Shown: piece by piece, positions 5,435-62,637 of the stretch
Position numbering within the stretch: the stretch's first letter is position 1
How the letters are laid out: every line of letters begins with the position of its first letter
Sequence record: PZ445527.1
Origin: a phage
DNA: 64,000 bases
Strand: one strand, 5' to 3'
Notes under the pieces: model-generated
What the model saw: only the letters and a program-made list of their open reading frames with translations
What the model was told of the DNA's origin: nothing
Databases searched by the model: none
Position numbers and translations under genes: made by a program

Positions 5435-5469
5435 TAATAACGGGGCGCAACTATCAGGGAGTGCCCCCA

Positions 5470-5516
5470 ATTCTCAAATGAGAATCATTCTCAAATGAGA
5501 ATGATTCTCATTTGAC
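5470..5516. repeat. imperfect palindromic repeats built on tctcaaatgagaatCattctca
   Basis: Direct reading; same aatgagaat motif family recurs at 5840-6030. Confidence 0.7.
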
Positions 5517-5707
5517 CGCGCCCGCGATGGTTAGCCTGCTAATGATTAGGGTGTTACGTGTCGCCTTGTGTGATCGTTAGCTCGCTAACTAATTTTCAAG
5601 CCTCCTCCAATTTTGCCCTTGTTTTAGTATCCCCGCCAAAATTAAACGCGTTAGAATGCGATTCAGGACGTTTTAGCGGTATATTAGAATTATTCACTGC
5701 ATAGGAA

Positions 5708-5727
5708 TACTGTATAAATATACAGTA
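5708..5727. promoter_or_regulatory. LexA (SOS) box, 20-bp consensus-like tACTGTATAAATATACAGta
   Basis: CTGT-N8-ACAG with TA flanks; second copy of the 16-mer at 3732-3747. Confidence 0.6.
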
Positions 5728-5747
5728 GAATAACCTGGGGATAAGTC

Positions 5748-5817
5748 TGTGGATAACGCTTCAAAATGGCTAGGATTCTGTCAAGTCAAATCGTGCTGTT
5801 GATAAGTCTGTGGATAA
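5748..5817 (-). promoter_or_regulatory. two DnaA boxes in inverted orientation (tgtggataa at 5748-5756 and 5809-5817), each within gataagtctgtggataac
   Basis: Reverse complement of TTATCCACA; the 18-bp context is the inverse of cttatccacagacttatcc at 3700-3718. Confidence 0.6.
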
Positions 5818-5839
5818 CTTAAATAACAGTGTTTCTCAC

Positions 5840-6030
5840 TTCCGTTTTTAAATGCGAATCATTATCATTCGTATTCCACTATCTAACCGATAATCATTCC
5901 ACTTTTTAAATGAGAATCGTTTCACTTCTTGAATAGTTCTCATTCCCTTTCTTAAATGCGAATAATTATCATTCGCATTTCACTTTTTAAATGAGATTGA
6001 TTCTCATTATCATTCGCATTCAGGCGAGCA
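5840..6030. repeat. cluster of degenerate repeats (ttttaaatgMgaat / tcattatcattcg units)
   Basis: Direct reading: at least 4 copies of ttttaaatg[c/a]gaat and 3 of (t)cattatcattcg. Confidence 0.65.
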
Positions 6031-25482: not shown

Positions 25483-25560
25483 TGGCAGGGGATATTGGAT
25501 TTGAACCAATGATCTCGACTTCAAAGGCCGTTGTGCTAACCGTTACACTACTCTCCAATT
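25483..25560 (-). ncRNA. tRNA-like 3' fragment (canonical T-arm + acceptor 3' strand + CCA) without a pairing 5' acceptor strand
   Basis: ATTGG-TTCAAAT-CCAAT T-arm followed by atcccct-g-CCA; no complementary 5' strand within 100 nt. Confidence 0.3.
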
Positions 25561-25648
25561 GTTTGGCTGGAGTGCCTGATTCAATCCCAGGCACCTTCGG
25601 AGTCAGAGGCCGACGACTTGACAATTGATCTACACCTCAAGAATACTA

Positions 25649-25885
25649 TTAACTAGATGCTGGTTCTGCTGGCTGAGATACAGCAGGCTGTTCTAATGTA
25701 TCTGGTGCTGATACAGAGAAAAGAGCTTGTAATGCTGCAATATCACGCTCGTAAGTTTCAATACGAGTAGTAAGAGTATCTACCATCTGTTTATGATAGG
25801 CTAAGTTATTCTGAGATTCATCTCGAAGGGTTTGCAGTTCTGCAAGACGTGTTAACATAATTTCACTAATTAAAGCATTACTCAT
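25649..25885 (-). CDS. hypothetical coiled-coil protein 78 aa
   Basis: ORF track. Confidence 0.5.
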   Translation of the reverse strand: MSNALISEIMLTRLAELQTLRDESQNNLAYHKQMVDTLTTRIETYERDIAALQALFSVSAPDTLEQPAVSQPAEPASS

Positions 25886-26075
25886 TTGTTTCTCCTAAAT
25901 TTTCCGGTTCTTCTAAACGTTTGCCTTCATGATCTACTCGAATAACTCCGCATCCTTCGCAAATCACAACTGCACCATAACCTTCTTTGACTTCAGCTTC
26001 TGTAATCAAACCAGAAAGATCACCAGTATCTCTGCCCCACATATCAATGGAGCATTGTTTGCAGAAATCAGCCAT
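25878..26075 (-). CDS. small Cys-containing protein 65 aa
   Basis: ORF track; CKQC...CEGC. Confidence 0.45.
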   Translation of the reverse strand: MADFCKQCSIDMWGRDTGDLSGLITEAEVKEGYGAVVICEGCGVIRVDHEGKRLEEPENLGETNE

Positions 26076-26100
26076 ATTTTATTTCCTATTTAAGTTAATT

Positions 26101-26177
26101 TGGGGTGGCTAGTGGAACTCGAATCCACATAGGCCTGATTCACAATCAGGATCATTAACCAATTATGATATAGCCAC
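26101..26177 (-). tRNA. tRNA-His (anticodon GUG)
   Basis: Perfect 7-bp acceptor, D-stem TCAT/ATGA, anticodon stem CCTGA/TCAGG with loop TTGTGAA, T-arm GTGGA-TTCGAGT-TCCAC, encoded CCA. Confidence 0.75.
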
Positions 26178-26543
26178 AATTGAAAACTCGCAGGGTTAGC
26201 GAAACCATCCTCAATTAGCATGTTCTAGAATACTAATCAAGTTATCTCCTATTGCACGCAGCTCAAGACGAGTACGAATTTTCAATTGTGGCGGCTCTCA
26301 GAAACTCTTCTATTCTAGCCTCAGAAGCTTACCCCCGAACGCATGTCGGGAAAGTCTTTCCAAGCGCATCAAATAGCACCGTTACACTTTGAGCCATTGA
26401 TGTATCAAGGAATAGAAGGACTTGAACCTTCATGAGTTAGACCATTTAACTCAACCGCTTTTTAGGGTATATTTCTAGGAGTGGATGTTCCTAGTAAACC
26501 TATTCGGCAGTCCCGTCTACCAATTCCGGCATATTCCAAGATT

Positions 26544-26638
26544 TGGAGGTAGGTAAGGGGATCGAACCATTACACCGTATCACTACGGTCAACCGATTTC
26601 AAGTCGGAGTCCATCGCCAGCCGTTGGATTGACCTACC
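26544..26638 (-). tRNA. tRNA-Ser (anticodon UGA), type II
   Basis: 7-bp perfect acceptor, anticodon loop CTTGAAA, long variable arm (ACCGTA/TACGGT), T-loop TTCGATC, CCA. Confidence 0.7.
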
Positions 26639-26650
26639 TTATAAATTGTT

Positions 26651-26735
26651 TGGTGGGTTAGGAGAGACTCGAACTCTCACGCACTTAAGCAAGGGCTTCT
26701 AAGACCCTCGTGGCTACCAATTACACCACTAACCC
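26651..26735 (-). tRNA. tRNA-Leu (anticodon UAG), type II
   Basis: 7-bp perfect acceptor, anticodon loop CTTAGAA, long variable arm, T-arm GAGAG-TTCGAGT-CTCTC, CCA. Confidence 0.7.
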
Positions 26736-26741
26736 CTAATT

Positions 26742-26816
26742 TGGTGGACAGTAGGAGAGTCGAACTCCTCACTCCTGAGTGCAAGTCAGGTATTTTCCCA
26801 GATAAACTAACCGCCC
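26742..26816 (-). tRNA. tRNA-Ala (anticodon UGC)
   Basis: Acceptor GGGCGGT with G3:U70 wobble (Ala identity element), anticodon stem CCTGA/TCAGG loop CTTGCAC, T-arm AGGAG-TTCGACT-CTCCT, CCA. Confidence 0.7.
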
Positions 26817-27055
26817 AAATTCTTTAATTTACTAAGGCTATTAGCTCGGCGTAACTACAGCACCTTCGCTTCAAGCGGAAGGAACCGCGTCATCTCGCAA
26901 ACCCAATACACTATTCAGTTGCCGCTGAATCTAGTGGACTAATCTAGAACTTCTCCCGAGTCGTAGGGATCGTGCTTTTTGGCAGCCAGTCCTAGGTCGA
27001 GCTAATACCTTAGTGAATTATGATGAGGATTTCTCCCATATCAATTTATATAAAT

Positions 27056-27084
27056 ATTATAACAAGAAATTAATCATCAAGCAA
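27056..27084 (-). promoter_or_regulatory. sigma70 promoter (TTGCTT-17-TATAAT) driving the tRNA block 26101-26816
   Basis: Minus strand consensus upstream of untranslated spacer and tRNAs. Confidence 0.65.
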
Positions 27085-27158
27085 TTGAGTTTTTCTTGAA
27101 ATTGGTAGCGGGTTCCAGTACTGCCCTGGACTTACTTAGCTTATGAGACTAAGAAGAA
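27083..27158 (-). ncRNA. tRNA-like sequence with CAU anticodon, 1:72 mismatch and non-canonical T-loop
   Basis: Acceptor 6/7 bp with CCA, anticodon loop CTCATAA; T-loop GGCAGTA lacks the T-psi-C pattern. Confidence 0.3.
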
Positions 27159-27165
27159 CTCTATG

Positions 27166-27260
27166 CCTTCCACCCGCAATTGTTTGGTTATTCTAGACAG
27201 GATTCGAACCTGTTATCACTTGTGCGGACTTACGAGAACCATTCTTTCACTCGAATCGAA
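27166..27260 (-). ncRNA. region with two T-loop-like motifs (GGTTCGAATCC and CGTTCGATTCG) that does not fold into a canonical tRNA
   Basis: Hand folding failed to find anticodon arm/acceptor pairing. Confidence 0.25.
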
Positions 27261-27431
27261 CGAGCTTCTGCCCTAGCCAAGCTGGTTTCCCCATCAACCA
27301 CGCTAGAATGTTTGATTGTTTTCAGTGCAAGAGTCCGAGTCTTGGACACGACCGTTTCGCAAGTACATAGGCAGCTTATCATGAGTCAGCACTTCCGAAT
27401 TGCTAGCCCCGTGTTCTGCACTGAAATTTTA

Positions 27432-27779
27432 TTAGTTTAACCGTAAAGTATTATCTAATTCACCATTAATTGTTCGGCATTCCTCTGGAATTGCTGGTGT
27501 GGCCTTGTATTCCCACCACTCAGCACCATCATATTCCCCACGTTCTAGCCAAGTTCCGTCGGCAAACCATACATTACCATAAAGTAATTGTCCACCGTAT
27601 CCAGAATCATACTCAAAGTCTAGGTTATCAAGAAAATCCTCAATATCTTCTTCTGTATAGCCTAAAGGTAATACCCAAACTTTTTTATCCCCATAATACC
27701 CGAATTCTATTTTAATACACTTAATTTTAGAATTGGTATTTTTTAAGGCAAGTAACAACTCTTCTTTAGCATTACGCAT
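27432..27779 (-). CDS. hypothetical protein 115 aa
   Basis: ORF track. Confidence 0.55.
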   Translation of the reverse strand: MRNAKEELLLALKNTNSKIKCIKIEFGYYGDKKVWVLPLGYTEEDIEDFLDNLDFEYDSGYGGQLLYGNVWFADGTWLERGEYDGAEWWEYKATPAIPEECRTINGELDNTLRLN

Positions 27780-27804
27780 AGTATATTCTCATACTGAATT
27801 AATT

Positions 27805-27881
27805 TGGCGCGACTGATGGGATTTGAACCCACATTCCCTCCCGTGATAGGGGAGTACCATTACCAAGCCAGCCACGGTCGC
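27805..27881 (-). tRNA. tRNA with unusual anticodon loop CTATCAC (anticodon AUC if folded conventionally)
   Basis: Acceptor 6/7 bp + CCA, T-arm GTGGG-TTCAAAT-CCCAT, anticodon stem CTCCC/GGGAG; A34 is atypical. Confidence 0.5.
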
Positions 27882-27890
27882 ATAATTTAT

Positions 27891-28076
27891 TTACTCAGCT
27901 TTGAGTTTTTCAATAGCTGCATTAAGTTCTTTAAGAAACTCTTTTCGTACATTAAGACGATTGAGACTTACTAGTATATCATGTTTAAGTTCTTCGATGT
28001 ATTTCTTCTCAACTTCAATATTGTTGATAGTGCTATCACGATGAACTTCTAGCTGCGCAATCACATTCTTGGACAT
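27891..28076 (-). CDS. hypothetical coiled-coil protein 61 aa
   Basis: ORF track. Confidence 0.4.
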   Translation of the reverse strand: MSKNVIAQLEVHRDSTINNIEVEKKYIEELKHDILVSLNRLNVRKEFLKELNAAIEKLKAE

Positions 28077-28178
28077 GCTTGTTTCCTCAGTTATTAATGA
28101 AAATGGTATCTGTGGCTGAATTAGATGTCAGCAATGATAGCTGGTTGGCTACCGGTTTACTTAACTCTACACAGAATT

Positions 28179-28260
28179 TGGCGGGCCGTGTAGGATTCGA
28201 ACCTACGTTGTCTTTCGACACGGATTAACAATCCGCCGCCAAACCGCTTGGCTAACGACC
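28179..28260 (-). tRNA. type II (long variable arm) tRNA with anticodon GUU
   Basis: 7-bp acceptor (one G-U), D-stem GCCA/TGGC, anticodon arm GCGGA-TTGTTAA-TCCGT, extra arm GTC-GAAA-GAC, T-arm GTAGG-TTCGAAT-CCTAC, CCA. Confidence 0.55.
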
Positions 28261-28416
28261 CTAAAAAATTTATATTGCTGACTAGGGTTTTCACCTAGAC
28301 GGAGTTAGCACCGTAGCGTGTAGCGGCATACCTCTCCAAACCGTGCCTCATCTTTCAATTACGGAGACAGTGTTCCTACGCGTGCCTGAATTGATTTAAC
28401 AATTCTTTCAGCAAAT

Positions 28417-28492
28417 TGGACGACCGCATGAGGATTGAACTCACATAAAAAGGATTTGCAATCCTTCGCCTAAGCCATTCAGCCAACGGTCG
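28417..28492 (-). tRNA. tRNA-Cys (anticodon GCA)
   Basis: 7-bp acceptor, anticodon stem AAGGA/TCCTT loop TTGCAAA, T-loop TTCAATC, CCA; 5' end overlaps stop of ORF 28479..28670. Confidence 0.65.
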
Positions 28493-28670
28493 ATTTATCT
28501 TGTTTTTCGAGATCTTCAAACTCTAAATCATTGAAGTTCCCTAGAGTACGGGTATAGAACCCATCCCCTGCGTCATAGCCTGATTTACCACAATCACACA
28601 TTTTAAATTCGCGCAGGTGTGTGAAAACATGTTCAGAACCACAACACTTAAATCTAACTAATCGTTTCAT
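28479..28670 (-). CDS. small zinc-finger-like protein 63 aa
   Basis: ORF track; CC...CDCGKSG. Confidence 0.4.
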   Translation of the reverse strand: MKRLVRFKCCGSEHVFTHLREFKMCDCGKSGYDAGDGFYTRTLGNFNDLEFEDLEKQDKSTVG

Positions 28671-28698
28671 TAGCTTCTCCAGTTCAATTTATGTAATT

Positions 28699-28727
28699 AT
28701 TATATAGAACTTTTGGGAACTAAGCAA
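28699..28727 (-). promoter_or_regulatory. sigma70 promoter (TTGCTT-17-TATAAT)
   Basis: Minus strand consensus. Confidence 0.65.
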
Positions 28728-29009
28728 CTACATTTTTTAAGAATTTGATGCCTTTCTTTTTCTTCTTATATTTCCACGTTAATGGATTCTGTCGATTATG
28801 AACGCTTGAGATCTTTGTCTCGTCAAAGTTCTTCAATATCATGTAATCACAAGATAATTGTTCTAGTGGAATGTGATCACCGTCAAAAGCGTATACATAA
28901 GGCTGTTGACTAGCACGATAATGATAGACTTTGTTAATTCTACGTTTCAGCGACTTATCCGCGCAGTAAATAAAGAAGTTTTAAGGGTGCATCAGCATCT
29001 CCTTCAATT

Positions 29010-29093
29010 TGGTGCATCGTGCTGGATTTGAACCACCAACCCCGAAGGGCACGGATTTACAGACCGCTGCAATAGCCATTCTGCCAACGATGC
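29010..29093 (-). tRNA. tRNA-Tyr (anticodon GUA), type II
   Basis: Perfect 7-bp acceptor, anticodon loop CTGTAAA, long variable arm (CCC-TTCG-GGG), T-loop TTCAAAT, CCA. Confidence 0.7.
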
Positions 29094-29221
29094 ACATTTA
29101 AAAGTATTCAAATACTAGTTTAAACACTTTTAAATATGTTTCCAAATTAGATAACTATTATACCAAGTTTTAAGGCACTGAGCAAGTCAGATTTTGAAGA
29201 ACTTGCTCAGTGCTGTATTAG

Positions 29222-29506
29222 TTAGTCGAACTTAGGAGTGACAGATAAGGAGAACGGAAGTTCAAAAACTTCTTCACCCTCATTACTAACGGTAACTACA
29301 CGACCTTTAAGTTCAGACATTAAAATATCAATATCAGCTTTTGCATCTGGAGCCATGCCAGCTTCAATACATTTAGCTTTAACTTCCGGTAAAAGCTCTA
29401 CGTTATAGAGATAGAGCCACTCAATCTCACCTTCCCAGTCTTCCCAGTCTTCCCAGGATTTGCAGATTGCACTTTCAATACCAGTTGCTACAACACGATT
29501 TTGCAT
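29222..29506 (-). CDS. hypothetical acidic protein 94 aa
   Basis: ORF track. Confidence 0.5.
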   Translation of the reverse strand: MQNRVVATGIESAICKSWEDWEDWEGEIEWLYLYNVELLPEVKAKCIEAGMAPDAKADIDILMSELKGRVVTVSNEGEEVFELPFSLSVTPKFD

Positions 29507-29596
29507 TCGTTAACTCCTTCATCAATTTATATAACTATTATACCAGAAATTTAAAGCAAAAGGCAAGTACATTTTTAAAAATTCTGTTTGGAGGAG

Positions 29597-29803
29597 CTAA
29601 ACTCCAGATTCTTCTGCCAAGTCTAGACTAATAAGAGTTATAGCCATAATTGCTGCACCGTGTTCTTTTTCTCCGGTGTTTTTAGCAGAGTCTATAATAT
29701 CCTTAATCTGTTCGTAATAACTTTTTACTTCTTGTTCAATGCCTGCCTCGGCTATCATGCCTTTAGTCATGAGTCGTTGCATGGTAATTTCAGTATTAGC
29801 CAT
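29597..29803 (-). CDS. hypothetical protein 68 aa
   Basis: ORF track; GGAG SD. Confidence 0.5.
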   Translation of the reverse strand: MANTEITMQRLMTKGMIAEAGIEQEVKSYYEQIKDIIDSAKNTGEKEHGAAIMAITLISLDLAEESGV

Positions 29804-29963
29804 GTTGTTTCTCCAGTTTCATTTTTAATAGTTTACAAATGAAATCAACGTCTTCATCCGTGCCTAGATCTCTATCTTCAAGGGTTGCCTTGAAATTTTT
29901 TGTTAGTTCCATAAGAATAACTTCCCTGGAACGACGTGTTGGCGGGGGTGGATGTCTATACAT
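29796..29963 (-). CDS. small proline-rich protein (55 aa)
   Basis: ATG with AAGGA SD, MYRHPPPPTRR...; below ORF track cut-off; overlaps next start by 8 nt. Confidence 0.4.
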   Translation of the reverse strand: MYRHPPPPTRRSREVILMELTKNFKATLEDRDLGTDEDVDFICKLLKMKLEKQHG

Positions 29964-29978
29964 CTTATTTCCTTAATT

Positions 29979-30053
29979 TGGTGGGTCGGAGGAGAATCTA
30001 ACTCCTACTCGTTAGCTTATGAGGCCACCGCTTTAACTTTAAGCTACCGACCC
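29979..30053 (-). tRNA. tRNA with CAU anticodon (Met or Ile-lysidine type) and atypical T-loop TTAGATT
   Basis: Perfect 7-bp acceptor GGGTCGG/CCGACCC, CCA, anticodon loop CTCATAA, T-stem AGGAG/CTCCT. Confidence 0.55.
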
Positions 30054-30059
30054 TATGTT

Positions 30060-30148
30060 TGGCGGAAGAAGTGGGAATCGAACCCACAAGGCTATATTTC
30101 AAACCGACAGATTAGCAATCTGCTGCAATACCGTTATGCTATTCTTCC
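30060..30148 (-). tRNA. tRNA-Ser (anticodon GCU), type II
   Basis: Perfect acceptor GGAAGAA/TTCTTCC, anticodon arm GCAGA-TTGCTAA-TCTGT, long variable arm, T-arm GTGGG-TTCGATT-CCCAC, CCA. Confidence 0.7.
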
Positions 30149-30162
30149 GAATTTATAAATAT

Positions 30163-30191
30163 ATTATATTAGAAATTTAGCTTCATAGCAA
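30163..30191 (-). promoter_or_regulatory. sigma70 promoter (TTGCTA-17-TATAAT) overlapping the 3' end of the upstream gene
   Basis: Minus strand consensus; would drive tRNAs 30148-29979. Confidence 0.6.
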
Positions 30192-30687
30192 GAAAATTTT
30201 TCAAGTTTTCGGTAGACATCTCATCCACATCTACAGGAGAAACAAATCCATTTAATTGTCTAGCAAATTTTTTACCAGCAGGATCATTATCCCCAACAGC
30301 TACCAATTTAAAAGGTAGTAATTTCAATTGCTTTAATAGCGCTTTTCCTGGAGAAGAACCCAACATTGCCAAGGCTGGATAACCAGCGTTATGTAACGCA
30401 ACTGCCTTAAATACAGATTCAGCAATCAATACCACTTTTTCATCTCCATTGAGAGTTTCTAGTCCCCATACACACTGTGTAGTAGAATAAGTAAAATATC
30501 TAGCTTCAAAGGGGCACTTACCATGACCTTTTGGAGCAGAAGGATTATAAGTCTGATAGCCTCTCAACATCCCAGAGAAGTCATACAATGGGACTGTTAG
30601 CCATCCTTCCGGGCTTAACCAGCAATGATATTTATCTGTATCAAACCCTCTAGATAAGAGATGTTCTGTTAGTTCATCAACAGTCAT
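30169..30687 (-). CDS. Toprim-domain protein 172 aa
   Basis: Conserved Glu (LIAESVF) and DxD (VGDNDPAGKK) spaced as in Toprim folds. Confidence 0.5.
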   Translation of the reverse strand: MTVDELTEHLLSRGFDTDKYHCWLSPEGWLTVPLYDFSGMLRGYQTYNPSAPKGHGKCPFEARYFTYSTTQCVWGLETLNGDEKVVLIAESVFKAVALHNAGYPALAMLGSSPGKALLKQLKLLPFKLVAVGDNDPAGKKFARQLNGFVSPVDVDEMSTENLKNFLAMKLNF

Positions 30688-30724
30688 ATTTGATCCCCTA
30701 GTTAGTTGTATAAATACATTATAC

Positions 30725-30758
30725 AGAAAAGCCCTGCGCTCTCCAGTGAACGCAGGGC
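30725..30758 (-). terminator. rho-independent terminator (gccctgcg...cgcagggc + U-tract)
   Basis: 8-bp GC stem followed by UUUU on minus strand, downstream of 30784..31731. Confidence 0.65.
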
Positions 30759-30783
30759 TTACTTCGAATATTACGTGTGGGTA

Positions 30784-31731
30784 TTACTTGTTACGCATAT
30801 CCATAATCATTTGGCCATCGTAACCAGTGCCAACCACAGTCTGCGGTACACCACCTTGATACTTCTGAGCACGAATCATTTCAACTTCTAGTTGCTTCCA
30901 GCGAATCATCTCAGGAGTAATGGTACGTTGCAGAGCGGCGTTAGCTTCAGCTTCTTTCTTAGCTGCGTACAGTTTAGCATCTGCATCACGTTCGTTTGCA
31001 ATAGCTTGGTTGTTACGAGCTTCACGATCTGCTTCTGCTTGTTTAACCTTCTGCTGTGCTTCTTGTTCAACACGAGCCAACTCAGCTTTCGCAGCATTAA
31101 CTTGTTCTTCACGAACTTTGGTATTCTGTACCTGTTCCATGATTACAGGCGGCAAAGTAATATCCTGAAGGAACACTTGCTTAACTGTGTAACCATAAGG
31201 GCGTGCATACTCTTCAACTTCCTGTTGAATTGCAGTTTGCAATTGAGCCTGAATTTTAGCATCAAACAAATCTTGTGCTTTAGGTACAGACTTACCAAAC
31301 TCACGAATAGTAGACAGTAATTTTTCAGTTACATACTTGTCTAGTGCCTGATCCTGAGTACCTGCATTAATACGGTTAATCGGTGCCTTAGAACCATCAA
31401 ACTGCAACATAACAGTCAGGTCAACAGTGGATTTAAACTTATCCTGACTAGGAACCTGAAGTTTATCTAATTTTACAGCAATATCTTTTGTACTGAAAGT
31501 ATCGAAAGATGCAAACGGGTTTACAATATGGAAACCAGGTAATACTGGATTAGGGTCTACTTTACCAAGAAATGTTTGGGTTTTAACCGTACCATCAGAA
31601 ACAATAGTATATGAATTAAAAGCTAGGATTAAACCTGCTAAACCAACTACAGCACCAATACCCCAACGTTTAATAGTACGGATTACTTTCTGCTCAGAAG
31701 TCAGTTCTTTCATATTTTTAGTAGCAAACAT
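30784..31731 (-). CDS. SPFH/band-7 (prohibitin/HflK-like) membrane protein 315 aa
   Basis: N-terminal TM helix, SPFH-like core, long Ala/Glu/Gln-rich coiled-coil C-terminus. Confidence 0.6.
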   Translation of the reverse strand: MFATKNMKELTSEQKVIRTIKRWGIGAVVGLAGLILAFNSYTIVSDGTVKTQTFLGKVDPNPVLPGFHIVNPFASFDTFSTKDIAVKLDKLQVPSQDKFKSTVDLTVMLQFDGSKAPINRINAGTQDQALDKYVTEKLLSTIREFGKSVPKAQDLFDAKIQAQLQTAIQQEVEEYARPYGYTVKQVFLQDITLPPVIMEQVQNTKVREEQVNAAKAELARVEQEAQQKVKQAEADREARNNQAIANERDADAKLYAAKKEAEANAALQRTITPEMIRWKQLEVEMIRAQKYQGGVPQTVVGTGYDGQMIMDMRNK

Positions 31732-31765
31732 ATATTTCCTTTGTTTTAGTTACAGTTAATAAAAT

Positions 31766-31839
31766 TGGCCGAGGTGACAGGATTCGAACCTGCATAAAGG
31801 AATTTAGAAGACTCCTGCCTCTCCCTTAGACTACACCCC
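31766..31839 (-). tRNA. tRNA-Arg (anticodon UCU)
   Basis: Acceptor 7 bp (one G-U), anticodon loop CTTCTAA, T-loop TTCGAAT, CCA. Confidence 0.6.
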
Positions 31840-32343
31840 GTTTAAGTATTTTTAAGAACTCTCGTAAAAACTCTTAAAAATACAGACGATACCGGGAGAG
31901 TCATAAGTCTCACTCATTAAGTATTTCAAGACAAAATACAGTAACGTCTATTATTTTCCAGTTTAAGTCAGGGTGACTTAGTGGTTATGTCCTGCGGTAT
32001 ATTGAGGACTCGGTTAGGCTTGGGGTCATGACTTCCCGCCTTTTGCTGCTACTCAACAGGAGTTATCGCGAATTACCTGTGCTATTGTGCACCATTAGTG
32101 ACATCTCTCATGCCAGCATTTCCCACTTTGTGGATAGCTTGAAAAACTACTCCGATACGGAGAAAGAACTTCACTATCCTAGAATACCTTCTAAAGTTCT
32201 TCTTTAGCCTGGACATAGTTAAATCGTAATAAAACTATTCAGCAGACCGGTTGGTTAGTCTGGAACCAACTACCGCGTGGTTTAGGCAGTGCGCAACTAA
32301 CCTCGGAAGCTTTTACGTTAAAAGCACCAGTTATCCAGTTCTT

Positions 32344-47945: not shown

Positions 47946-48611
47946 ATGGTAAGAAAGAAAATAACTACAGAAGATGTGAACTTAGCACTTGCTCCCAGAG
48001 GAATAATTATGCTAAGCACGTATATATCAGCTAAATCCAATGCTATATTTAAGTGCTCTAATGGGCATAGTTGGGAGGCTAGAGTAGATAATGTAAAAGG
48101 TGGGAGAGGTTGCCCTTATTGTGCTAGTCGTACTTTAGATCTTAAAGAGGTAAATGAATCCTTAGCTGCTCGTGGAATAAAGATGGAAGGTAAATACATC
48201 AATTCTAAGAGTAAAATTATGTTCAGCTGTGAGAATGATCATAGGTGGGAGTCTACCCTTGATAGTGTTAGAAATCATAATTCTGGTTGTCCTATATGTT
48301 TATTAGAGAAGGATAATTATCCTACTAACGTATATATTTTAGTAAGTAGTATGGGAACCAAAATAGGGATGTCTAGCAGAACTAAAGATAGACTCAGAGA
48401 TATTAAAACTTCTTCTAACATACATGATTTAAAAATATTTAAGGAATATAGCTTTTCAGATAGATCAAAAGCTGTGCGTATTGAAAGAGAAGCCCATTTA
48501 CAGTTTAAGGAATATAATTGTCAGTACAAAGATTTTGATGGTGCTACAGAATTTTTTAGTATTGAGCCAGAAGTAGTAGCAAGGTTTATTGAGGAAATAA
48601 TTAATGAATAA
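47946..48611 (+). CDS. zinc-ribbon repeat + T5orf172 (GIY-YIG-related) domain protein 221 aa
   Basis: Two C..GH.W....G.GCP.C repeats (CSNGHSWEARVDNVKGGRGCPYC; CENDHRWESTLDSVRNHNSGCPIC) and a KIGMSSRTKDRLRDIKT segment. Confidence 0.6.
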   Translation: MVRKKITTEDVNLALAPRGIIMLSTYISAKSNAIFKCSNGHSWEARVDNVKGGRGCPYCASRTLDLKEVNESLAARGIKMEGKYINSKSKIMFSCENDHRWESTLDSVRNHNSGCPICLLEKDNYPTNVYILVSSMGTKIGMSSRTKDRLRDIKTSSNIHDLKIFKEYSFSDRSKAVRIEREAHLQFKEYNCQYKDFDGATEFFSIEPEVVARFIEEIINE

Positions 48612-50451
48612 AGATGAATTGATTAGAAACTGCAAAGAAATTATTGAGGGTTCTGCTGATGAAGAGCTTCTCTTTAATAATGCGAATAAACCCTCTGAGC
48701 GTTTCCCTACACAAAGGGATATGCTTGCAGGGGAATTGAGTAAATATCTGATTCTAGAAGAAATGCCAATTCAGATTCGAAATGCTCATATGATTGGAGA
48801 TATTCATTTCCATGATGCTGACTATGCTGCATTAGGCATGACTAACTGTTGCCTAGTAGCCCTGGAAGATATGTTGAAAAATGGTATGAAAGTTGGTAAT
48901 GCTGAAATTAGTACACCAAATTCTATTACTACTGCGGCGGCTATTACTGCTCAGATTATCACTCAGGTTAGCTCCCATCAGTATGGTGGTACTTCTGTAG
49001 ATCGCCTTGATGAAGTATTAGCCCCTTATGTTCGTAAGTCCTATGATAAAAATCATGCGTTTGCAAAACGTTGGACTAAGGATGAAGCTAAAGCATCTGT
49101 AATGGCTACGGAGATGACTGAAAAAGAAGTCTATGACGCTTGCCAGGGTTTAGAATATGAAATCAATACCATGTTCAACTCTAACGGTCAGAGTCCATTT
49201 ATTACCTTTGGTTTTGGTCTAGGAACTTCTTGGGAAGCACGTCTAGTACAGAAAGCAATACTGAAAGTACGCATGGATGGTTTAGGTATCAATAAACGTA
49301 CAGCTATCTTCCCGAAACTGGTATTTGTACTTCGTGATGGCGTAAATATGAAACCAGGGGATGTTAATTATGACATCAAGAAGTTAGCTATGAAATGTAC
49401 TGCTGAACGTATGTATCCAGATTATATCAGCTATGATAAGGTTGTGGAAGTTACTGGAGACTATAAAGTTTCTATGGGCTGCCGTTCATTCCTAGCTGCT
49501 GCAGAAGATGGTGAAACTGCCGGTCGTAATAACTTAGGTGTTGTTTCTGTAAACTTGCCTAGAATTGCTATCGAAGCTGAAGGAAATATTGACCTATTCT
49601 TTGATTTGCTTGAGCTACGTGTAGATACAGCATTAAAAGCGTTGGAGTGGAGAGTTGATCGCTTAAAATACATTCAAGCTAAAGCTGCACCCATCCTCTA
49701 TATGTCAGGAGCCTTTGGATTACGCTTAGGGCCTGATGAATATGTATTCGATCATTTCTATAACCGTGCTTCTGTATCTCTAGGGTATATTGGTTGCCAT
49801 GAAATGCTACAGTTCATGTTTGGCAAAGATGTAGACACAATGTCCGAGACCTGCATCAAGTTTGTTCAGCGTGTATTGCAGTACATGCGGGATAGAGTCG
49901 ATCAGAAGAAGGAAGAAACTAAGTTAGGTTATAGCCTGTATGCTACACCATCAGAGTCCCTATGTGATCGCTTTTGTCGTCTAGACCGTGAATATTTCCC
50001 GGAGCATGAAGATATTCTGTCCAAAGGATACTACACTAACTCTCACCACCTTGATGTGGAACGTAAAGTTGCCCCTAACGTGAAATTTGATTATGAATCT
50101 AACTTTACTCCGATTGCTTCTGGTGGGTGTATCTCTTATGTAGAACTACCAGATATGAAACGATTCCCGGATGCACTGGAATGGGTTATTAATTATGCTG
50201 CTAGTAAGGTTCATTACTTCGGTATTAATACTCCAGTGGATTCCTGTGGTAAATGTGGATTCTTAGGTGAAACAGTAGCATCCGAAGATGGATTCAAGTG
50301 CCCTATCTGTGGTAATCATGACCCTGAAACTCTTGAAGTAACTCGTCGAGTTTGTGGGTATCTTGGAAATCCAGGTGCTCGTCCGTTTAACCCAGGAAAA
50401 CAACATGAGGTTATGGGCAGGGTGAAACATCAGGATATTCGAGCTAAATAA
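48604..50451 (+). CDS. nrdD: anaerobic ribonucleoside-triphosphate reductase (NrdD) 615 aa
   Basis: C-terminal glycyl-radical motif RVCGYLG and Zn site CPICGN; size. Confidence 0.9.
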   Translation: MNKDELIRNCKEIIEGSADEELLFNNANKPSERFPTQRDMLAGELSKYLILEEMPIQIRNAHMIGDIHFHDADYAALGMTNCCLVALEDMLKNGMKVGNAEISTPNSITTAAAITAQIITQVSSHQYGGTSVDRLDEVLAPYVRKSYDKNHAFAKRWTKDEAKASVMATEMTEKEVYDACQGLEYEINTMFNSNGQSPFITFGFGLGTSWEARLVQKAILKVRMDGLGINKRTAIFPKLVFVLRDGVNMKPGDVNYDIKKLAMKCTAERMYPDYISYDKVVEVTGDYKVSMGCRSFLAAAEDGETAGRNNLGVVSVNLPRIAIEAEGNIDLFFDLLELRVDTALKALEWRVDRLKYIQAKAAPILYMSGAFGLRLGPDEYVFDHFYNRASVSLGYIGCHEMLQFMFGKDVDTMSETCIKFVQRVLQYMRDRVDQKKEETKLGYSLYATPSESLCDRFCRLDREYFPEHEDILSKGYYTNSHHLDVERKVAPNVKFDYESNFTPIASGGCISYVELPDMKRFPDALEWVINYAASKVHYFGINTPVDSCGKCGFLGETVASEDGFKCPICGNHDPETLEVTRRVCGYLGNPGARPFNPGKQHEVMGRVKHQDIRAK

Positions 50452-50459
50452 GCTAATCA

Positions 50460-50490
50460 GCCAGGTTGCTAGTCGACCTGGCTTTTATTT
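50460..50490 (+). terminator. rho-independent terminator after nrdD
   Basis: Stem gccaggt/acctggc followed by TTTT. Confidence 0.7.
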
Positions 50491-51211: not shown

Positions 51212-52051
51212 GTGAGGAACTGTACAGTGCGTAGATTAATTATTATTAGCGGTGCAGGTTTGAGCGTTGAAAGTGGTGTACGAGCCTTCCGTACTGATAC
51301 TGCTAGTGGTAAAGCATTGTGGGATGATTATGACTTAGAAGAGGTATGTAATATTCATGCCTTTCGTGGTAATTTTTATCATAAAACCCATATGTTTTAC
51401 AACAAGCGTCGTGAAGAGCTAAAAACTATTGAACCCAATCTTGCGCATCTTCGTATTGGTGAGTGGTATAAACAATACCCAGGTCAAGTAGTAAACTTGA
51501 CTACTAACGTCGATGACCTTATTGAGCGTGCTGGCGTTCCGCATAGTGACATTCTACATATTCATGGGTATTTAAAAGAGGTTGTTGTAGCTGACAGCTA
51601 CAATAGCAGTAATAAACGAGTTATTGATGTTGGGTATAGCTCTATTGACCCAGATGATTATAAATGGGTTAAACCTAATGTAATCTTCTTTGGTGAGCAT
51701 GCTCCAGCGTACGCAGAAATGTACAATATTTTTGATGGTATTACCAGTCAAGATATGATCGTTGTAGTTGGTTGCTCTAACCAAGTAATTAACTTCTACT
51801 GGGAATTATTCCCTGTTCTTAATTTGACTGCTGCCAAATTAATGGTAGTTAACTACTATGATAGTGCCCTAGCGACAGAGCCAGGCTATCAAGGTATGAC
51901 TCGTAGTGAGATGTACCAGCTGGAAGAACGCGGTATCCCTTACTGGAGTAAAGGGGCTGTAGATGCCTTCAGTGACCCTGATTTTATTACTCGTGTAGAA
52001 GCTCATCTAGAGGGTAGACCTTATATGCCGGGGAAACAAATATGTCCATAA
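51212..52051 (+). CDS. Sir2-family (sirtuin-like) NAD-dependent protein 279 aa, no zinc-ribbon cysteines
   Basis: GAGLSVESGVRAFR, TNVDDL and HIHG blocks; GTG start with GAAGGA SD; no CxxC pairs. Confidence 0.75.
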   Translation: MRNCTVRRLIIISGAGLSVESGVRAFRTDTASGKALWDDYDLEEVCNIHAFRGNFYHKTHMFYNKRREELKTIEPNLAHLRIGEWYKQYPGQVVNLTTNVDDLIERAGVPHSDILHIHGYLKEVVVADSYNSSNKRVIDVGYSSIDPDDYKWVKPNVIFFGEHAPAYAEMYNIFDGITSQDMIVVVGCSNQVINFYWELFPVLNLTAAKLMVVNYYDSALATEPGYQGMTRSEMYQLEERGIPYWSKGAVDAFSDPDFITRVEAHLEGRPYMPGKQICP

Positions 52052-52224
52052 TTAAATCTGTGTATACACACCCTGATGATATATTTGTATGGGCGGATGG
52101 TAGTTGGTGCTATCGCTGTGAGCTGTGGGAAATGGACTATAAATCCGATGACTATGGTGTCATATATGTTGATACGGTTGAGTATGATACGTTCTTAGAA
52201 AGGGACAAAAGTGGAAATAAGTAA
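52042..52224 (+). CDS. hypothetical protein 60 aa
   Basis: ORF track. Confidence 0.4.
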   Translation: MSIIKSVYTHPDDIFVWADGSWCYRCELWEMDYKSDDYGVIYVDTVEYDTFLERDKSGNK

Positions 52225-52719
52225 TACTCCGATTATTTTTCTAGACATTGATGGGGTGCTCAATTCGAGCATCTCCCACCATCATGCACCTGATGATGAA
52301 AAGATTTTCTTTGGAAGTGACTGGGTTTTCAAACCGCTTCTCAAGGCTTTTCAGGACTTTATTCGTCCTTCTCCGATAATGATTGTTGGAGTATCCTCAT
52401 GGTTCTCTGTCAGGAATGAGGTGGAGAACGTTCACATTATGACCGGATTAGGTCTTATCGATCGTTTTCTAGGTACAACGGATTTTACAGGGGGGTGGAT
52501 TATCTAGGGGTAATTCTGTTCTTCGTTTCGTTGAAAAGCATAAGCTCAAACATTGGTGTGTGCTGGATGATGCTGGTGCTATGATGTATCAGTATCCAAC
52601 AGTTATAGTCAATGGTAGGACTGGGATAAATCTTCAAGATTTAAAAGCTGTTAGCTATATGCTAGAATTTAGCCCAGATCTTGAAATGTGTAAATCCTTA
52701 CAACAATTTAAGGTGTAAA
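52211..52719 (+). pseudogene. HAD-like hydrolase gene split into two frames at a G6 tract (52490-52495)
   Basis: N-terminal ORF 52211..52507 carries HAD motif I (FLDIDGVLN); downstream frame to stop 52717-52719 continues with a WCVLDDAG-type motif; one fewer G would fuse them. Confidence 0.5.
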
Positions 52720-52720
52720 T

Positions 52721-53149
52721 ATGTTCAATAATGTATTCTCTAAAGAAGCTAACCCAATTTTGGTTAACTTTTGGCGTACTCTTCCAGCCAACCTATACAA
52801 TGAGGCTATTAATGCTCTGAAAATATGGTGTGAGAATAATGAAATCTCCTTTGCTTTTAAAGGTGAGATTGAAGAGGCTCCGTGTATTGGTTTAATTGTG
52901 CAGGTGGAGGATGGTCTTGAAGAGATTGTCGGCTGGAAAGAGTTAGATGAAATGGGCTTGGTTTTTGCATTAAACTATAAGCTGTTTATGCCTAATAAAC
53001 ACCGTATTGTTGTTAATTATAAAACCAGTGAATCTCCTGGTTTTCAAGTTAATGAACGGTATGGTTGGTCTTACTCACCAGAAGAGGTAAATGATGGTAT
53101 CCAAAAACTTCGCCGTTTTGGTTATCAAATTCCGGGTTTAACTGCCTAA
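52721..53149 (+). CDS. hypothetical protein 142 aa (paralog of next gene)
   Basis: ORF track; shared blocks PCIG...MGL..ALN..LF...PGL with 53159..53545. Confidence 0.6.
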   Translation: MFNNVFSKEANPILVNFWRTLPANLYNEAINALKIWCENNEISFAFKGEIEEAPCIGLIVQVEDGLEEIVGWKELDEMGLVFALNYKLFMPNKHRIVVNYKTSESPGFQVNERYGWSYSPEEVNDGIQKLRRFGYQIPGLTA

Positions 53150-53158
53150 GGAGGCACA

Positions 53159-53545
53159 ATGGAACAAGTATATTGGCGTCAGATTGATCCTAGTTTAGTG
53201 AAGCGTGCAGAGAAGCTGCTACAACGTTGGTTGGGGGTAAGACAAGCCTCCTTCACTTTTCCGGAGCAGCAAACGGATGATCCCTGTATTGGTGTTTTCC
53301 TATCAGGCTACGCTAGGGAATTGGATTGGAATGAGTTGTCTGCTATGGGTTTAATTGTTGCACTAAATTTCTTTTTGTTCCATCCACGTGGTTTGGCCAT
53401 ATGTCGTGTGCCTGATGACGGTTGTTCGCCCCATCTTTTACAGGTGAAAGATGATACTTGGGAGTACACTCCAGATATTCTCAAAGAAGCCAAAGAACAA
53501 TTGAATCGTGTTGGAATCTATGTTCCAGGCCTGAATGATGAATGA
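53159..53545 (+). CDS. hypothetical protein 128 aa (paralog of previous gene)
   Basis: ORF track; AGGAGG SD. Confidence 0.6.
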   Translation: MEQVYWRQIDPSLVKRAEKLLQRWLGVRQASFTFPEQQTDDPCIGVFLSGYARELDWNELSAMGLIVALNFFLFHPRGLAICRVPDDGCSPHLLQVKDDTWEYTPDILKEAKEQLNRVGIYVPGLNDE

Positions 53546-53568: not shown

Positions 53569-53593
53569 GCCGAGTCATTTTGGCTCGGTTTTC
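53569..53593 (+). terminator. rho-independent terminator
   Basis: Stem ccgag/ctcgg with TTTT. Confidence 0.55.
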
Positions 53594-60103: not shown

Positions 60104-61075
60104 ATGACTAATGTAAAAGAATTTATTAAACGCTGTCAAGAAGCATATTATCAAGGCATGTCTTTAATCTCTGATGAAGAATATGATCGTCTGGTAAAAC
60201 GCTTCCCGTTAGAGGAAGAGATCGGGCCTAAGGGTGATATTCCACACCTATATCGTATGTATTCTTTACAGAAAGTTTATTATAATCGTGGGGATAAACC
60301 ACCATTCAATCCTTTAGGTCAGGTGGAAACCGATAAGTTAGATGGTTGTGCAATTTCTCTGCTATATATTAACGGTGAATTTGTTCAAGCATTAACCCGT
60401 GGTAACGGTATTCTGGGGAATGATGTCACAAGCAACGTAAGATTGCTGAACATCCCTAAAAAGATTTCCCAAAAAGTACCTACCCAAATCACTGGTGAAG
60501 TTCTAATTACAAAGGAAGTAGAAAATAAACGTAACTTTGCCTCTGGTGCTATTAACCTCAAAGATAGCAATGATTTTGTACAACGCATTGGAGAAGGCGG
60601 TTTAATTTTTGTTGCTTATGGTATCCAATGTTCTGCTGAATCTGTAGGTATTACAGAAGCATACTTAAAAGATATGCTTTGGCTAGAGAATGAGAACTTC
60701 TTAACAGTTGTTAATGTACGTTCCTTCTTTAAATGGATTCCAACCGACGGTAAAGTTGTTCGTATTAATGATAATAATAAATTCTTCCGCGAAGGGTGGA
60801 CTAATAAATTCCCTCGTGGAGCATTCGCTATTAAAGAGGATGAAGAAGGCGAGATTACAACTCTTACTAAAGTTGAATGGGCGACAGGAGCGTCTGGTAA
60901 AGTAACTCCAGTTGGTTATTTCGAACCGGTAATTATTGATGATGCAGTTATTACAAAAGCCACCCTTAATAATGTAGATTATATTAAATCACTAGATTTA
61001 GAGATCGGATGTCAGATTAGAGTAGTACGTGCAGGCGGTGTGATACCAAAGATTGTGGAAAGAGTTTATGAATAG
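60104..61075 (+). CDS. NAD-dependent DNA ligase, N-terminal part (adenylation + OB-fold) 323 aa
   Basis: Adenylation motif KLDG (ETDKLDGCAISL) and LigA-like blocks; ends before the Zn-finger/HhH/BRCT region. Confidence 0.8.
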   Translation: MTNVKEFIKRCQEAYYQGMSLISDEEYDRLVKRFPLEEEIGPKGDIPHLYRMYSLQKVYYNRGDKPPFNPLGQVETDKLDGCAISLLYINGEFVQALTRGNGILGNDVTSNVRLLNIPKKISQKVPTQITGEVLITKEVENKRNFASGAINLKDSNDFVQRIGEGGLIFVAYGIQCSAESVGITEAYLKDMLWLENENFLTVVNVRSFFKWIPTDGKVVRINDNNKFFREGWTNKFPRGAFAIKEDEEGEITTLTKVEWATGASGKVTPVGYFEPVIIDDAVITKATLNNVDYIKSLDLEIGCQIRVVRAGGVIPKIVERVYE

Positions 61076-61869: not shown

Positions 61870-62637
61870 ATGAAAATCGAAATTCCAACACAATGTCCCT
61901 CTTGTGGTTCTAAGCTAGATCTTGTCAACGGACAATTATTCTGTCGTAATAAGTCCAACTGTCCAGCGCAATCAAGTAAGTTAATTGAGAACTTCTGTAC
62001 AAAAATGAAGTTAAAGGGCTTTGGCCCAAAAACTATTGAGAAGCTGGAGCTGACGAAGATTTCAGAACTATTTTACCTAACCGAAGAAGATTTGGTTAGA
62101 GCCGTGGGTAGCAAGGTTGCCGCTAAGTTAATTAGCGAATTAAATACTAAAGTTCGCGGAGACATTGACTTTGGTTCAGTTCTCGGTTCTTTAGGAATCC
62201 CTCTGATTGGAGAGGTTGCAGCAAAGAAATTATCCCAAAATTGCACTAGCTTCCACGATGTGAAGGCTGACGGCAAGGCTGGAGAAAACTATAAAGCCTG
62301 GCTAAATTCCCCACAAGGCAAGGATGTAATCGAATTACCGTGGAAATTCTCAAAGGGTGTTAAAGCTGACATCATTACTGATGGTCTAGTAGCTCAACCA
62401 AATGGAATCGCGGTATGTATTACCGGATCTTTGCAAGATTTTGCAAATAGAACGGATGCAACAAACTATTTAGAAAGTCTAGGGTATACGGTTAAGAAAT
62501 CCGTTACTAAAGACGTCAAATACCTAATCTGTGAGGATGAATCAAAACGTTCTTCCTCATCTTATAAGAAAGCCGAAACGAATGGGATAGAAATCCTGTC
62601 GATTAAAGAACTATTGGAGAAAAATAATAATGTCTAA
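61870..62637 (+). CDS. NAD-dependent DNA ligase, C-terminal part (Zn-finger, HhH, BRCT-like) 255 aa
   Basis: Cys4 zinc finger (CPSCGSKL...CRNKSNCPAQ) then HhH- and BRCT-like segments. Confidence 0.8.
   Translation: MKIEIPTQCPSCGSKLDLVNGQLFCRNKSNCPAQSSKLIENFCTKMKLKGFGPKTIEKLELTKISELFYLTEEDLVRAVGSKVAAKLISELNTKVRGDIDFGSVLGSLGIPLIGEVAAKKLSQNCTSFHDVKADGKAGENYKAWLNSPQGKDVIELPWKFSKGVKADIITDGLVAQPNGIAVCITGSLQDFANRTDATNYLESLGYTVKKSVTKDVKYLICEDESKRSSSSYKKAETNGIEILSIKELLEKNNNV

Follow-up and report, generated by a model that had tools for sequence, protein, structure and literature searches.

In a stretch of phage DNA of 64,000 nucleotides (record PZ445527.1, referred to below as the window) we analysed the Sir2-family gene at 51212..52051 on the + strand. 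Its product is almost certainly a sirtuin of canonical fold that descends from the CobB/SIRT5 group (class III), and it has lost the zinc ligands that other sirtuins carry. Regarding its activity, we tentatively favour ADP-ribosyl transfer to RNA phosphates, in the course of RNA repair, as the best single explanation, because only this reading would account both for a recurrent and rearrangement-resistant linkage to genes of RNA end healing and sealing and for the active-site changes seen in the clade. The gene, its zinc-less state and the possible role in RNA repair are all already in the literature.

The open reading frame (ORF) extends over 279 aa from a GTG at 51212 to a TAA stop codon. 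The protein gives a full-length match to the canonical sirtuin model of Pfam, PF02146 (SIR2; E 2e-24, 87 bits against a gathering cut-off of 24, model positions 1-178 of 180), which bears out the family assignment made in a first-pass annotation of this DNA. It also matches PHROG 2162 (E 1e-119), and at E <= 1 no Pfam family other than PF02146 was found for it. A dN/dS of 0.07, calculated versus chee24 and HildyBeyeler, indicates purifying selection. Conservation was scored across the 120 closest homologues, which are 49-96% identical. A second in-frame GTG lies at 51227 and would give a protein of 274 aa. Since the sequence GAGGAA (51214-51219) lies 7 nt upstream of this codon, and since 98 of the 120 homologues, as well as many annotated records, start at the residue aligned to V6 of the 279-aa version, GTG 51227 is probably the true start, rather than 51212. 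Under either choice the start codon is GTG, as originally proposed.

The catalytic blocks named by the first-pass annotation are all present on the + strand. The NAD-binding loop GAGLSVESGVRAFR (residues 14-27; 51251..51292) has G14, A15, G16, S18, S21, G22, F26 and R27 invariant in 53 aligned homologues. TTNVDDL (residues 97-103; 51500..51520) is the equivalent of TQNIDxL in other sirtuins, with the Gln replaced by T98, and its T98, N99, V100 and D101 are invariant among the 120 homologues. HIHG (residues 116-119; 51557..51568) contains the catalytic His118, with H118 and G119 invariant. Beyond these blocks, the FFGE loop (residues 159-162; 51686..51697), which belongs to the substrate and NAD cleft in canonical sirtuins, has F159, F160 and E162 invariant. 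Taking the 120 homologues together, the invariant or nearly invariant positions are G14-A-G16, S18, S21-G22, F26-R27, W37 and C46 in the N-terminal part; F62-Y63-N-x-R66-R67, P75-N76, H79, T98-N99-V-D101 and H118-G119 in the middle; and K154-P-N-V-x-F-F-G-E162, D181, G187-C-S189, V192-I-N-F195 and N214 in the C-terminal part. The protein therefore has what defines a sirtuin, namely the catalytic His, the NAD-pocket residues Asn and Asp, and the loop GAGxS...FR. His118, Asn99 and Asp101 are the residues for nicotinamide cleavage and ribose-hydroxyl activation in deacylation.

The class III signature is also present. Y63-N-K-R66-R67 (51398..51412, + strand) aligns with the Y-x-x-R of CobB and SIRT5: in the HMMER alignment to the CobB structure 1s5p, 'fynkrre' of the phage protein stands opposite 'fynarrr', placing Y63 and R66 on the FYNARR of CobB, and Y63, R66 and R67 do not vary within the clade. 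In SIRT5 and CobB, it is the Y-x-x-R pair to which the carboxylate of succinyl- or malonyl-lysine binds. Three departures are specific to the phage clade: Q98T, the change of GTS to GCS, and the V-I-N-F that comes after GCS, where CobB has V-Y-P according to Skliros et al. (PMC5107563).

When CobB and the defence-type proteins ThsA and DSR are compared as possible relatives, hidden Markov models and structure both side with CobB. In the PDB, E. coli CobB (1s5p) is the nearest by sequence (E 1.6e-17), ahead of Sir2Af1, SIRT5, Sir2Tm, SIRT3 and SIRT2. An AlphaFold2 (AF2) model built from 53 homologues has a predicted local distance difference test score (pLDDT) of 89.6 and a predicted template modelling score (pTM) of 0.88. 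Foldseek places CobB first among PDB structures (E 2e-17, template modelling (TM) score 0.84, target-normalised), then Sir2Af1 and SIRT5; its best 50 PDB matches are canonical sirtuins throughout (CobB, Sir2Af1, SIRT5, Sir2Tm, SIRT2), with no defence-type SIR2 structure among those 50. Fold (TM 0.84 to 1s5p), GAGxS, N-x-D, HG, FGE and Y-x-x-R are thus common to the phage protein and to CobB, SIRT5 and Sir2Af1. In contrast to them, the phage protein has no zinc Cys, its second knuckle is deleted, Q, GTS and the segment after it have become T, GCS and V-I-N-F, and identity is only ~25%. The protein is of CobB/SIRT5 descent yet no CobB equivalog, a candidate assignment that we rejected because its scores lie far under the curated NCBIfam cut-offs (100 vs 243 bits for NF001753; 88 vs 320 bits for NF040867, prot_deacyl_CobB).

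The absence of paired CxxC zinc motifs, remarked on in the first-pass annotation, is confirmed both by the positions of Cys residues and by an alignment with 78 zinc-type relatives. Cys is found only at positions 4, 46, 188 and 278, with no CxxC anywhere, and the segment between residues 119 and 158, which forms the zinc ribbon in other sirtuins, contains neither Cys nor His; the small domain has no Cys4 zinc site. In the alignment, the first two conserved Cys columns of the zinc-type relatives correspond to V126 and S132, both variable columns in the phage clade, while their second CxxC (the CPxC knuckle) sits in a segment that the phage protein has lost between P147 and D148. Module Cys pairs are missing from all of the 120 closest homologues, so the absence of ligands is no quirk of this copy. 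A zinc site made of non-canonical residues, a prospect raised together with the original proposal, was looked for and rejected: the module is without His, the columns equivalent to Cys are variable or deleted, and no conserved ligand set was found in it, the only near-invariant positions being L121, E123, G141, Y142 and W152.

The module itself persists. According to AF2 and the alignment, residues 120-157 (51569..51682, + strand) form a small β-sheet module homologous to the sirtuin zinc ribbon. AF2 predicts strands at 119-127, 136-139 and 152-157, with block-mean pLDDT 93-98, and the zinc-type relatives share the remaining landmarks of the module with the phage protein (the 'IGYS' turn and 'KPNVVFFGE'). 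Since these three strands are still predicted and the Cys columns are substituted or deleted, the model has the module kept but shortened, with the zinc ligands alone gone.

To judge from the sequences, zinc loss defines a large phage-specific clade and goes together with the Q-to-T change in TQNID. A search of 1.84 billion representative proteins returned 3019 relatives, 44 of them below E 1e-30, and a homologue is carried by 998 phage records. The module Cys residues and position 98 were surveyed in 154 sequences (clustered at 50%), made up of 150 listed representatives and a few close homologues. Gln in TQNID occurs with at least three module Cys in 78 of these 154 and T98 with no Cys at all in 31, and there are few intermediates. 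Missing zinc ligands had already been reported by Skliros et al. 2016 for the homologues of the Vibrio phages phiSt2 and KVP40 (PMC5107563). Those proteins belong to the same clade, are 35% identical to the one studied here and have no Cys in the module; they differ in coming from another phage family and in having no obvious RNA-repair genes in their neighbourhood.

The proposal of a role in RNA repair goes back to Iyer, Burroughs and Aravind 2022 (PMC9503650, section 3.7.3), who found that viral sirtuins fall mostly into one clade with three types of gene neighbourhood, and who predicted for them a KptA/Tpt1-like, NAD-dependent removal of RNA 2'-phosphates. Their third type is typified by the T5-like Escherichia phage SP15, where the sirtuin is accompanied by a 'Swiss-army-knife' (SAK) HAD phosphatase (PMC9503650). 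The Sir2 of the window is a member of this clade by its PHROG 2162 match and has the RNA end-processing neighbour of the T5/SP15 type, a HAD_SAK gene that is frameshifted here and intact in relatives. A phage sirtuin next to a SAK HAD, with no macrodomain partner, is what the two analyses have in common, and the type 2 set (RNA ligase, cREC, kinase, phosphoesterase) was re-found independently by us. The function was predicted in that work, and the loss of zinc ligands is not mentioned there, 'zinc' occurring once and 'Zn-ribbon' never (PMC9503650).

We recovered 62 IMG/VR loci with the Sir2 alignment. Every T5-like and Eps7-like locus among them (27/27) has HAD_SAK_2 at 0.65-1.1 kb downstream of Sir2, and in one locus of My1 type this position is taken by a more distantly related HAD (44% identity). 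Erwinia phage KEY has its HAD gene upstream of Sir2 instead; gene order has changed and HAD is still near Sir2, so the link survives rearrangement. In another 11 loci (rV5, Mydo, Ro1 and pEa types), Sir2 is closely preceded by genes for a T4-type RNA ligase, a small kinase and a calcineurin-like phosphoesterase, and in most of them also by one for a cREC domain protein. According to Pfam, RNA_lig_T4_1, cREC_REC, an AAA_33 kinase and SIR2 are directly consecutive in Ro1, and the rV5/Ro1-type gene set is also present in WalterGehring and pEa_SNUABM_55. Two genes upstream of a megaphage relative with 36% identity, which retains QNID and the four Cys, there is likewise an RNA ligase.

In the window, the partner of Sir2 is a HAD_SAK_2 phosphatase gene ('Swiss Army Knife' RNA-repair HAD; 52211..52718, + strand). 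It starts 160 nt past Sir2, and the distance is bridged by a 60-aa ORF (phrog_5116; 52042..52224, + strand) that overlaps Sir2 at its 5' end and HAD at its 3' end and is kept between both genes in T5-like loci. The HAD gene is split into 52211-52507 and 52560-52718. DNA alignment attributes the split to one extra G in the run 52490-52495, within 'ACAGGGGGGTGG'. The N-terminal half matches PF18143 with E 9.8e-11, and the intact orthologue of chee24 matches it with E 1.8e-20 over model positions 1-138 of 139. An intact ORF of 168-179 aa is present in five relatives (chee24, HASG4, which is 99.4% identical, T5_ev212, Seafire and STWB21). As the extra G occurs in this window only, a programmed frameshift was rejected. 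Both halves show a dN/dS of ~0.05, and the split is due to a sequencing error in the homopolymer or else to inactivation of the gene in the very recent past. The HAD gene of JLBYU43 has an independent nonsense codon.

NAD+ metabolism also appears around some of these loci. Phages that combine RNA ligase, kinase and Sir2 (Ro1 and the loci L011 and L074) have NAMPT-like (PF04095) and phosphoribosyl-pyrophosphate (PRPP) synthetase genes within 6 kb upstream of Sir2; in L074 the NAMPT-like gene directly adjoins a zinc-less Sir2, and Ro1 has a NADAR gene ~6 kb downstream. Such neighbours fit NAD+ salvage next to an NAD+-consuming enzyme, with recycling of the nicotinamide that it releases.

Tpt1/KptA belongs to the ADP-ribosyltransferase (ART) superfamily. 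Sirtuins are structurally unrelated to ARTs (PMC9503650), and with unrelated folds the likeness would be one of functional analogy alone. The Tpt1 reaction, as outlined in PMC6573784, has two steps. These parallel the sirtuin mechanism, where the same hydroxyl would be activated by His118. We hypothesize that nicotinamide would be cleaved from NAD+ and ADP-ribose passed to an oxygen nucleophile, His118 then activating the ribose 2''-OH for the second step as in deacylation. Following the prediction of PMC9503650, the acceptor would be a phosphate on damaged RNA, most likely the 2'-phosphate after cleavage by a host nuclease. Phage Sir2 would be, in this case, a sirtuin-fold analogue of Tpt1/KptA, working with the adjacent HAD_SAK_2 phosphatase in T5-like phages and with RNA ligase, cREC and polynucleotide kinase in rV5/Ro1-like phages. 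It is tempting to propose that the zinc-less phage clade represents the first sirtuin with RNA as natural acceptor, a suggestion that we hold with a little more reserve than the RNA-repair role as such. Should it be right, the loss of the zinc knuckle, Q98T and the V-I-N-F loop could have reshaped the acyl-lysine cleft to take an RNA phosphate, and the 50% divergence of Sir2 between T5-like genera could reflect an arms race with RNA-targeting defences of the host.

Several observations weigh against a role in RNA repair. All the residues that a lysine deacylase needs are conserved in Sir2, and the predicted isoelectric point of 5.5 makes it an acidic protein, an uncommon property among RNA-binding enzymes. 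E. coli has a KptA of its own. The T5-like Sir2 cluster includes no RNA ligase or kinase, and about 20 of the 62 IMG/VR loci (phi92-, 7-11-, Sugarland- and KVP40-like) have no RNA-repair neighbour by the queries used; Pfam searches of the Sir2 neighbours in phi92-like, 7-11-like and other loci gave mostly no matches and no common partner. Moreover, as HAD is frameshifted here and carries a nonsense codon in JLBYU43, with Sir2 intact in both, Sir2 is not strictly dependent on HAD. Finally, full-text literature searches turned up no experimental work on phage sirtuins of the zinc-less clade; what they yielded were annotations, one in-silico study and two papers of comparative genomics.

Among other explanations, the main rival is a zinc-independent, NAD+-dependent lysine deacylase (deacetylase, desuccinylase or demalonylase), because nothing that this reaction needs is missing. 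By such an activity the phage would reset the acylation of host or phage proteins, for instance reactivating acetyl-CoA synthetase or other metabolic or transcription proteins while the infection proceeds. Invariant or nearly invariant H118, N99, D101, F26, R27 and FGE loop are what a deacylase would show, as is the invariant class III pair Y63-x-x-R66; the nearest sequences and structures, CobB, Sir2Af1 and SIRT5, are deacylases; and the β-sheet module is predicted by AF2 to fold without zinc. The case for such an activity in the zinc-less homologues of Vibrio phages had been made by Skliros et al. 2016 (PMC5107563). However, the zinc module is reportedly needed for deacetylation by canonical sirtuins (PMC12700824), and the protein stays far below the CobB cut-offs given above. 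TQNID has invariably become TTNVD, and V-I-N-F follows GCS where CobB reads V-Y-P (PMC5107563). A deacylase would also give no account of the recurrent tight linkage to RNA ligase, cREC, kinase and HAD_SAK_2. We regard deacylation as possible, if rather unlikely.

The first-pass annotation had reasoned from the missing zinc motifs to the Sir2 NADases of defence systems, that is, to an NAD+ glycohydrolase that lowers host NAD+ in the way of ThsA or DSR. Defence-type SIR2 proteins do share with phage Sir2 the NAD+-binding Rossmann core and the lack of bound zinc, and sirtuins in general can hydrolyse NAD+ slowly. Nevertheless, the entire β-sheet module is absent from the defence proteins (Pfam SIR2_2: ThsA, DSR1/2, SIR2-HerA, FAM118; PMC12700824), whereas phage Sir2 retains it and keeps His118. 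A defence-type identity was rejected because the protein matches neither Pfam SIR2_2 nor any SIR2 model of PADLOC, and none of its best 50 structural matches is of that type. NAD+ depletion would, in addition, starve the NAD-dependent DNA ligase that the phage itself encodes, making a bulk NADase unlikely, and the NAMPT-like and PRPP-synthetase genes near Sir2 in related phages point to recycling of NAD+ and not to its destruction. The family, the retained module and the ligase all speak against manipulation of host NAD+ by hydrolysis; we give this activity very little credence, and the analogy to defence NADases should not be carried forward. The same annotation had also considered ADP-ribose transfer to a target other than acetyl-lysine. 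That part is compatible with the low CobB scores, the changes in the NAD pocket and substrate loop, and the RNA-repair linkage. A mono-ADP-ribosyltransferase of SirTM or SIRT4/6 type, acting on a protein, DNA or a small molecule (a host defence or translation factor, for example), would use a chemistry open to any sirtuin. It could also agree with the divergence of Sir2, whose amino-acid identity of 50-59% to the copies of the Epseptimavirus members Seafire and STWB21 is far lower than that of NrdD (97%) or HAD_SAK_2 (87-90%), as for a gene of host interaction. SirTM, however, has its catalytic His replaced by Gln, retains the zinc domain and is encoded in an operon with a macrodomain and GcvH-L (PMC4518038). 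Phage Sir2 shows the reverse pattern, with His118 invariant and zinc lost, and no macrodomain gene was found adjoining it in the window. SirTM identity was consequently rejected, and such a transferase seems improbable to us.

By DNA identity, PHROG 2162 and gene order, the Sir2 gene is the orthologue of the gene annotated in phage T5 (YP_006930.1), and the window belongs to a T5-like phage. At the DNA level the gene has 80-96% identity to 236 phage records. These are almost exclusively T5-like phages of Escherichia and Salmonella (Demerecviridae), in which it goes under the name 'Sir2-like protein' or 'NAD-dependent protein deacetylase of SIR2 family'. The order is that of T5: nrdD (48604-50451, upstream of Sir2), small ORFs, Sir2, the 60-aa ORF, HAD, two DUF7415 genes and a 929-aa replication protein, and the gene occupies the same site between nrdD and the replication protein as the Sir2-like gene of T5 and other Demerecviridae. 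Compared with other T5-like copies, Sir2 itself shows no substantive difference, and it is the neighbouring HAD_SAK_2 that has the one-base insertion here. Sir2, the 60-aa ORF and HAD_SAK_2 overlap end to start and all lie between two terminator-like hairpins. The upstream one, after nrdD (50459..50483, + strand), coincides with a terminator annotated at the same place in HASG4; the downstream one is at 53569..53589 (+ strand), and the HASG4 terminator is slightly further downstream, past one more small ORF.

The two tandem DUF7415 paralogues (52721-53149 and 53159-53545, + strand; PF24187, E 3e-33 and 4e-30) complete this terminator-bounded unit with Sir2 and HAD. They are ~30% identical to each other, and although they appear in some records as 'exonuclease' or 'tail tube protein', Pfam supports DUF7415 alone. 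Versus the same two Epseptimavirus members they show 63-73% identity. Megablast retrieves 236 phage records with Sir2 DNA as query, against 410 with that of the neighbouring HAD. Such a divergence hot spot at Sir2 suggests allele replacement or an arms race at one gene.

Other features of the window deserve mention. A cluster of 12 tRNA genes on the - strand (25483-31840) includes a tRNA-Asp with the unusual anticodon ATC at 27805-27881, and it bears on any reading of the Sir2/HAD pair in terms of RNA or tRNA repair. The ORF of 221 aa at 47946-48611 has T5orf172/MUG113 and DUF4379 treble-clef zinc-finger domains (PHROG 'endonuclease') and overlaps the first 8 nt of nrdD (which starts at 48604); it is probably a homing endonuclease. 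The subunits A (60104-61072) and B (61870-62634) of the NAD-dependent DNA ligase are 96% identical to the annotated subunits of HildyBeyeler. The gap between them is ~800 nt here versus ~200 nt in HildyBeyeler, and there may be an insertion between both genes in this window. In phi92-like phages and Justusliebigvirus, a gene of ~180 aa is located just upstream of Sir2 in at least three loci (5459-6013 in PaulScherrer, locus L008, where it overlaps Sir2; 7459-8004 in L054). One record labels the PaulScherrer gene 'putative aminoacyl-tRNA synthetase', a label left unconfirmed by Pfam, which gave no match.

In summary, about a thousand sequenced phages carry this sirtuin, including the T5 and rV5 groups, which serve in phage therapy and as laboratory models. 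If the protein is a deacylase, it would be a canonical sirtuin that functions without its zinc site, and phages would be editing the acylome of their hosts. If it acts in RNA repair, it would bring a new chemistry to the sirtuin fold and provide phages with a new counter-measure against the tRNA and RNA nucleases of the host.

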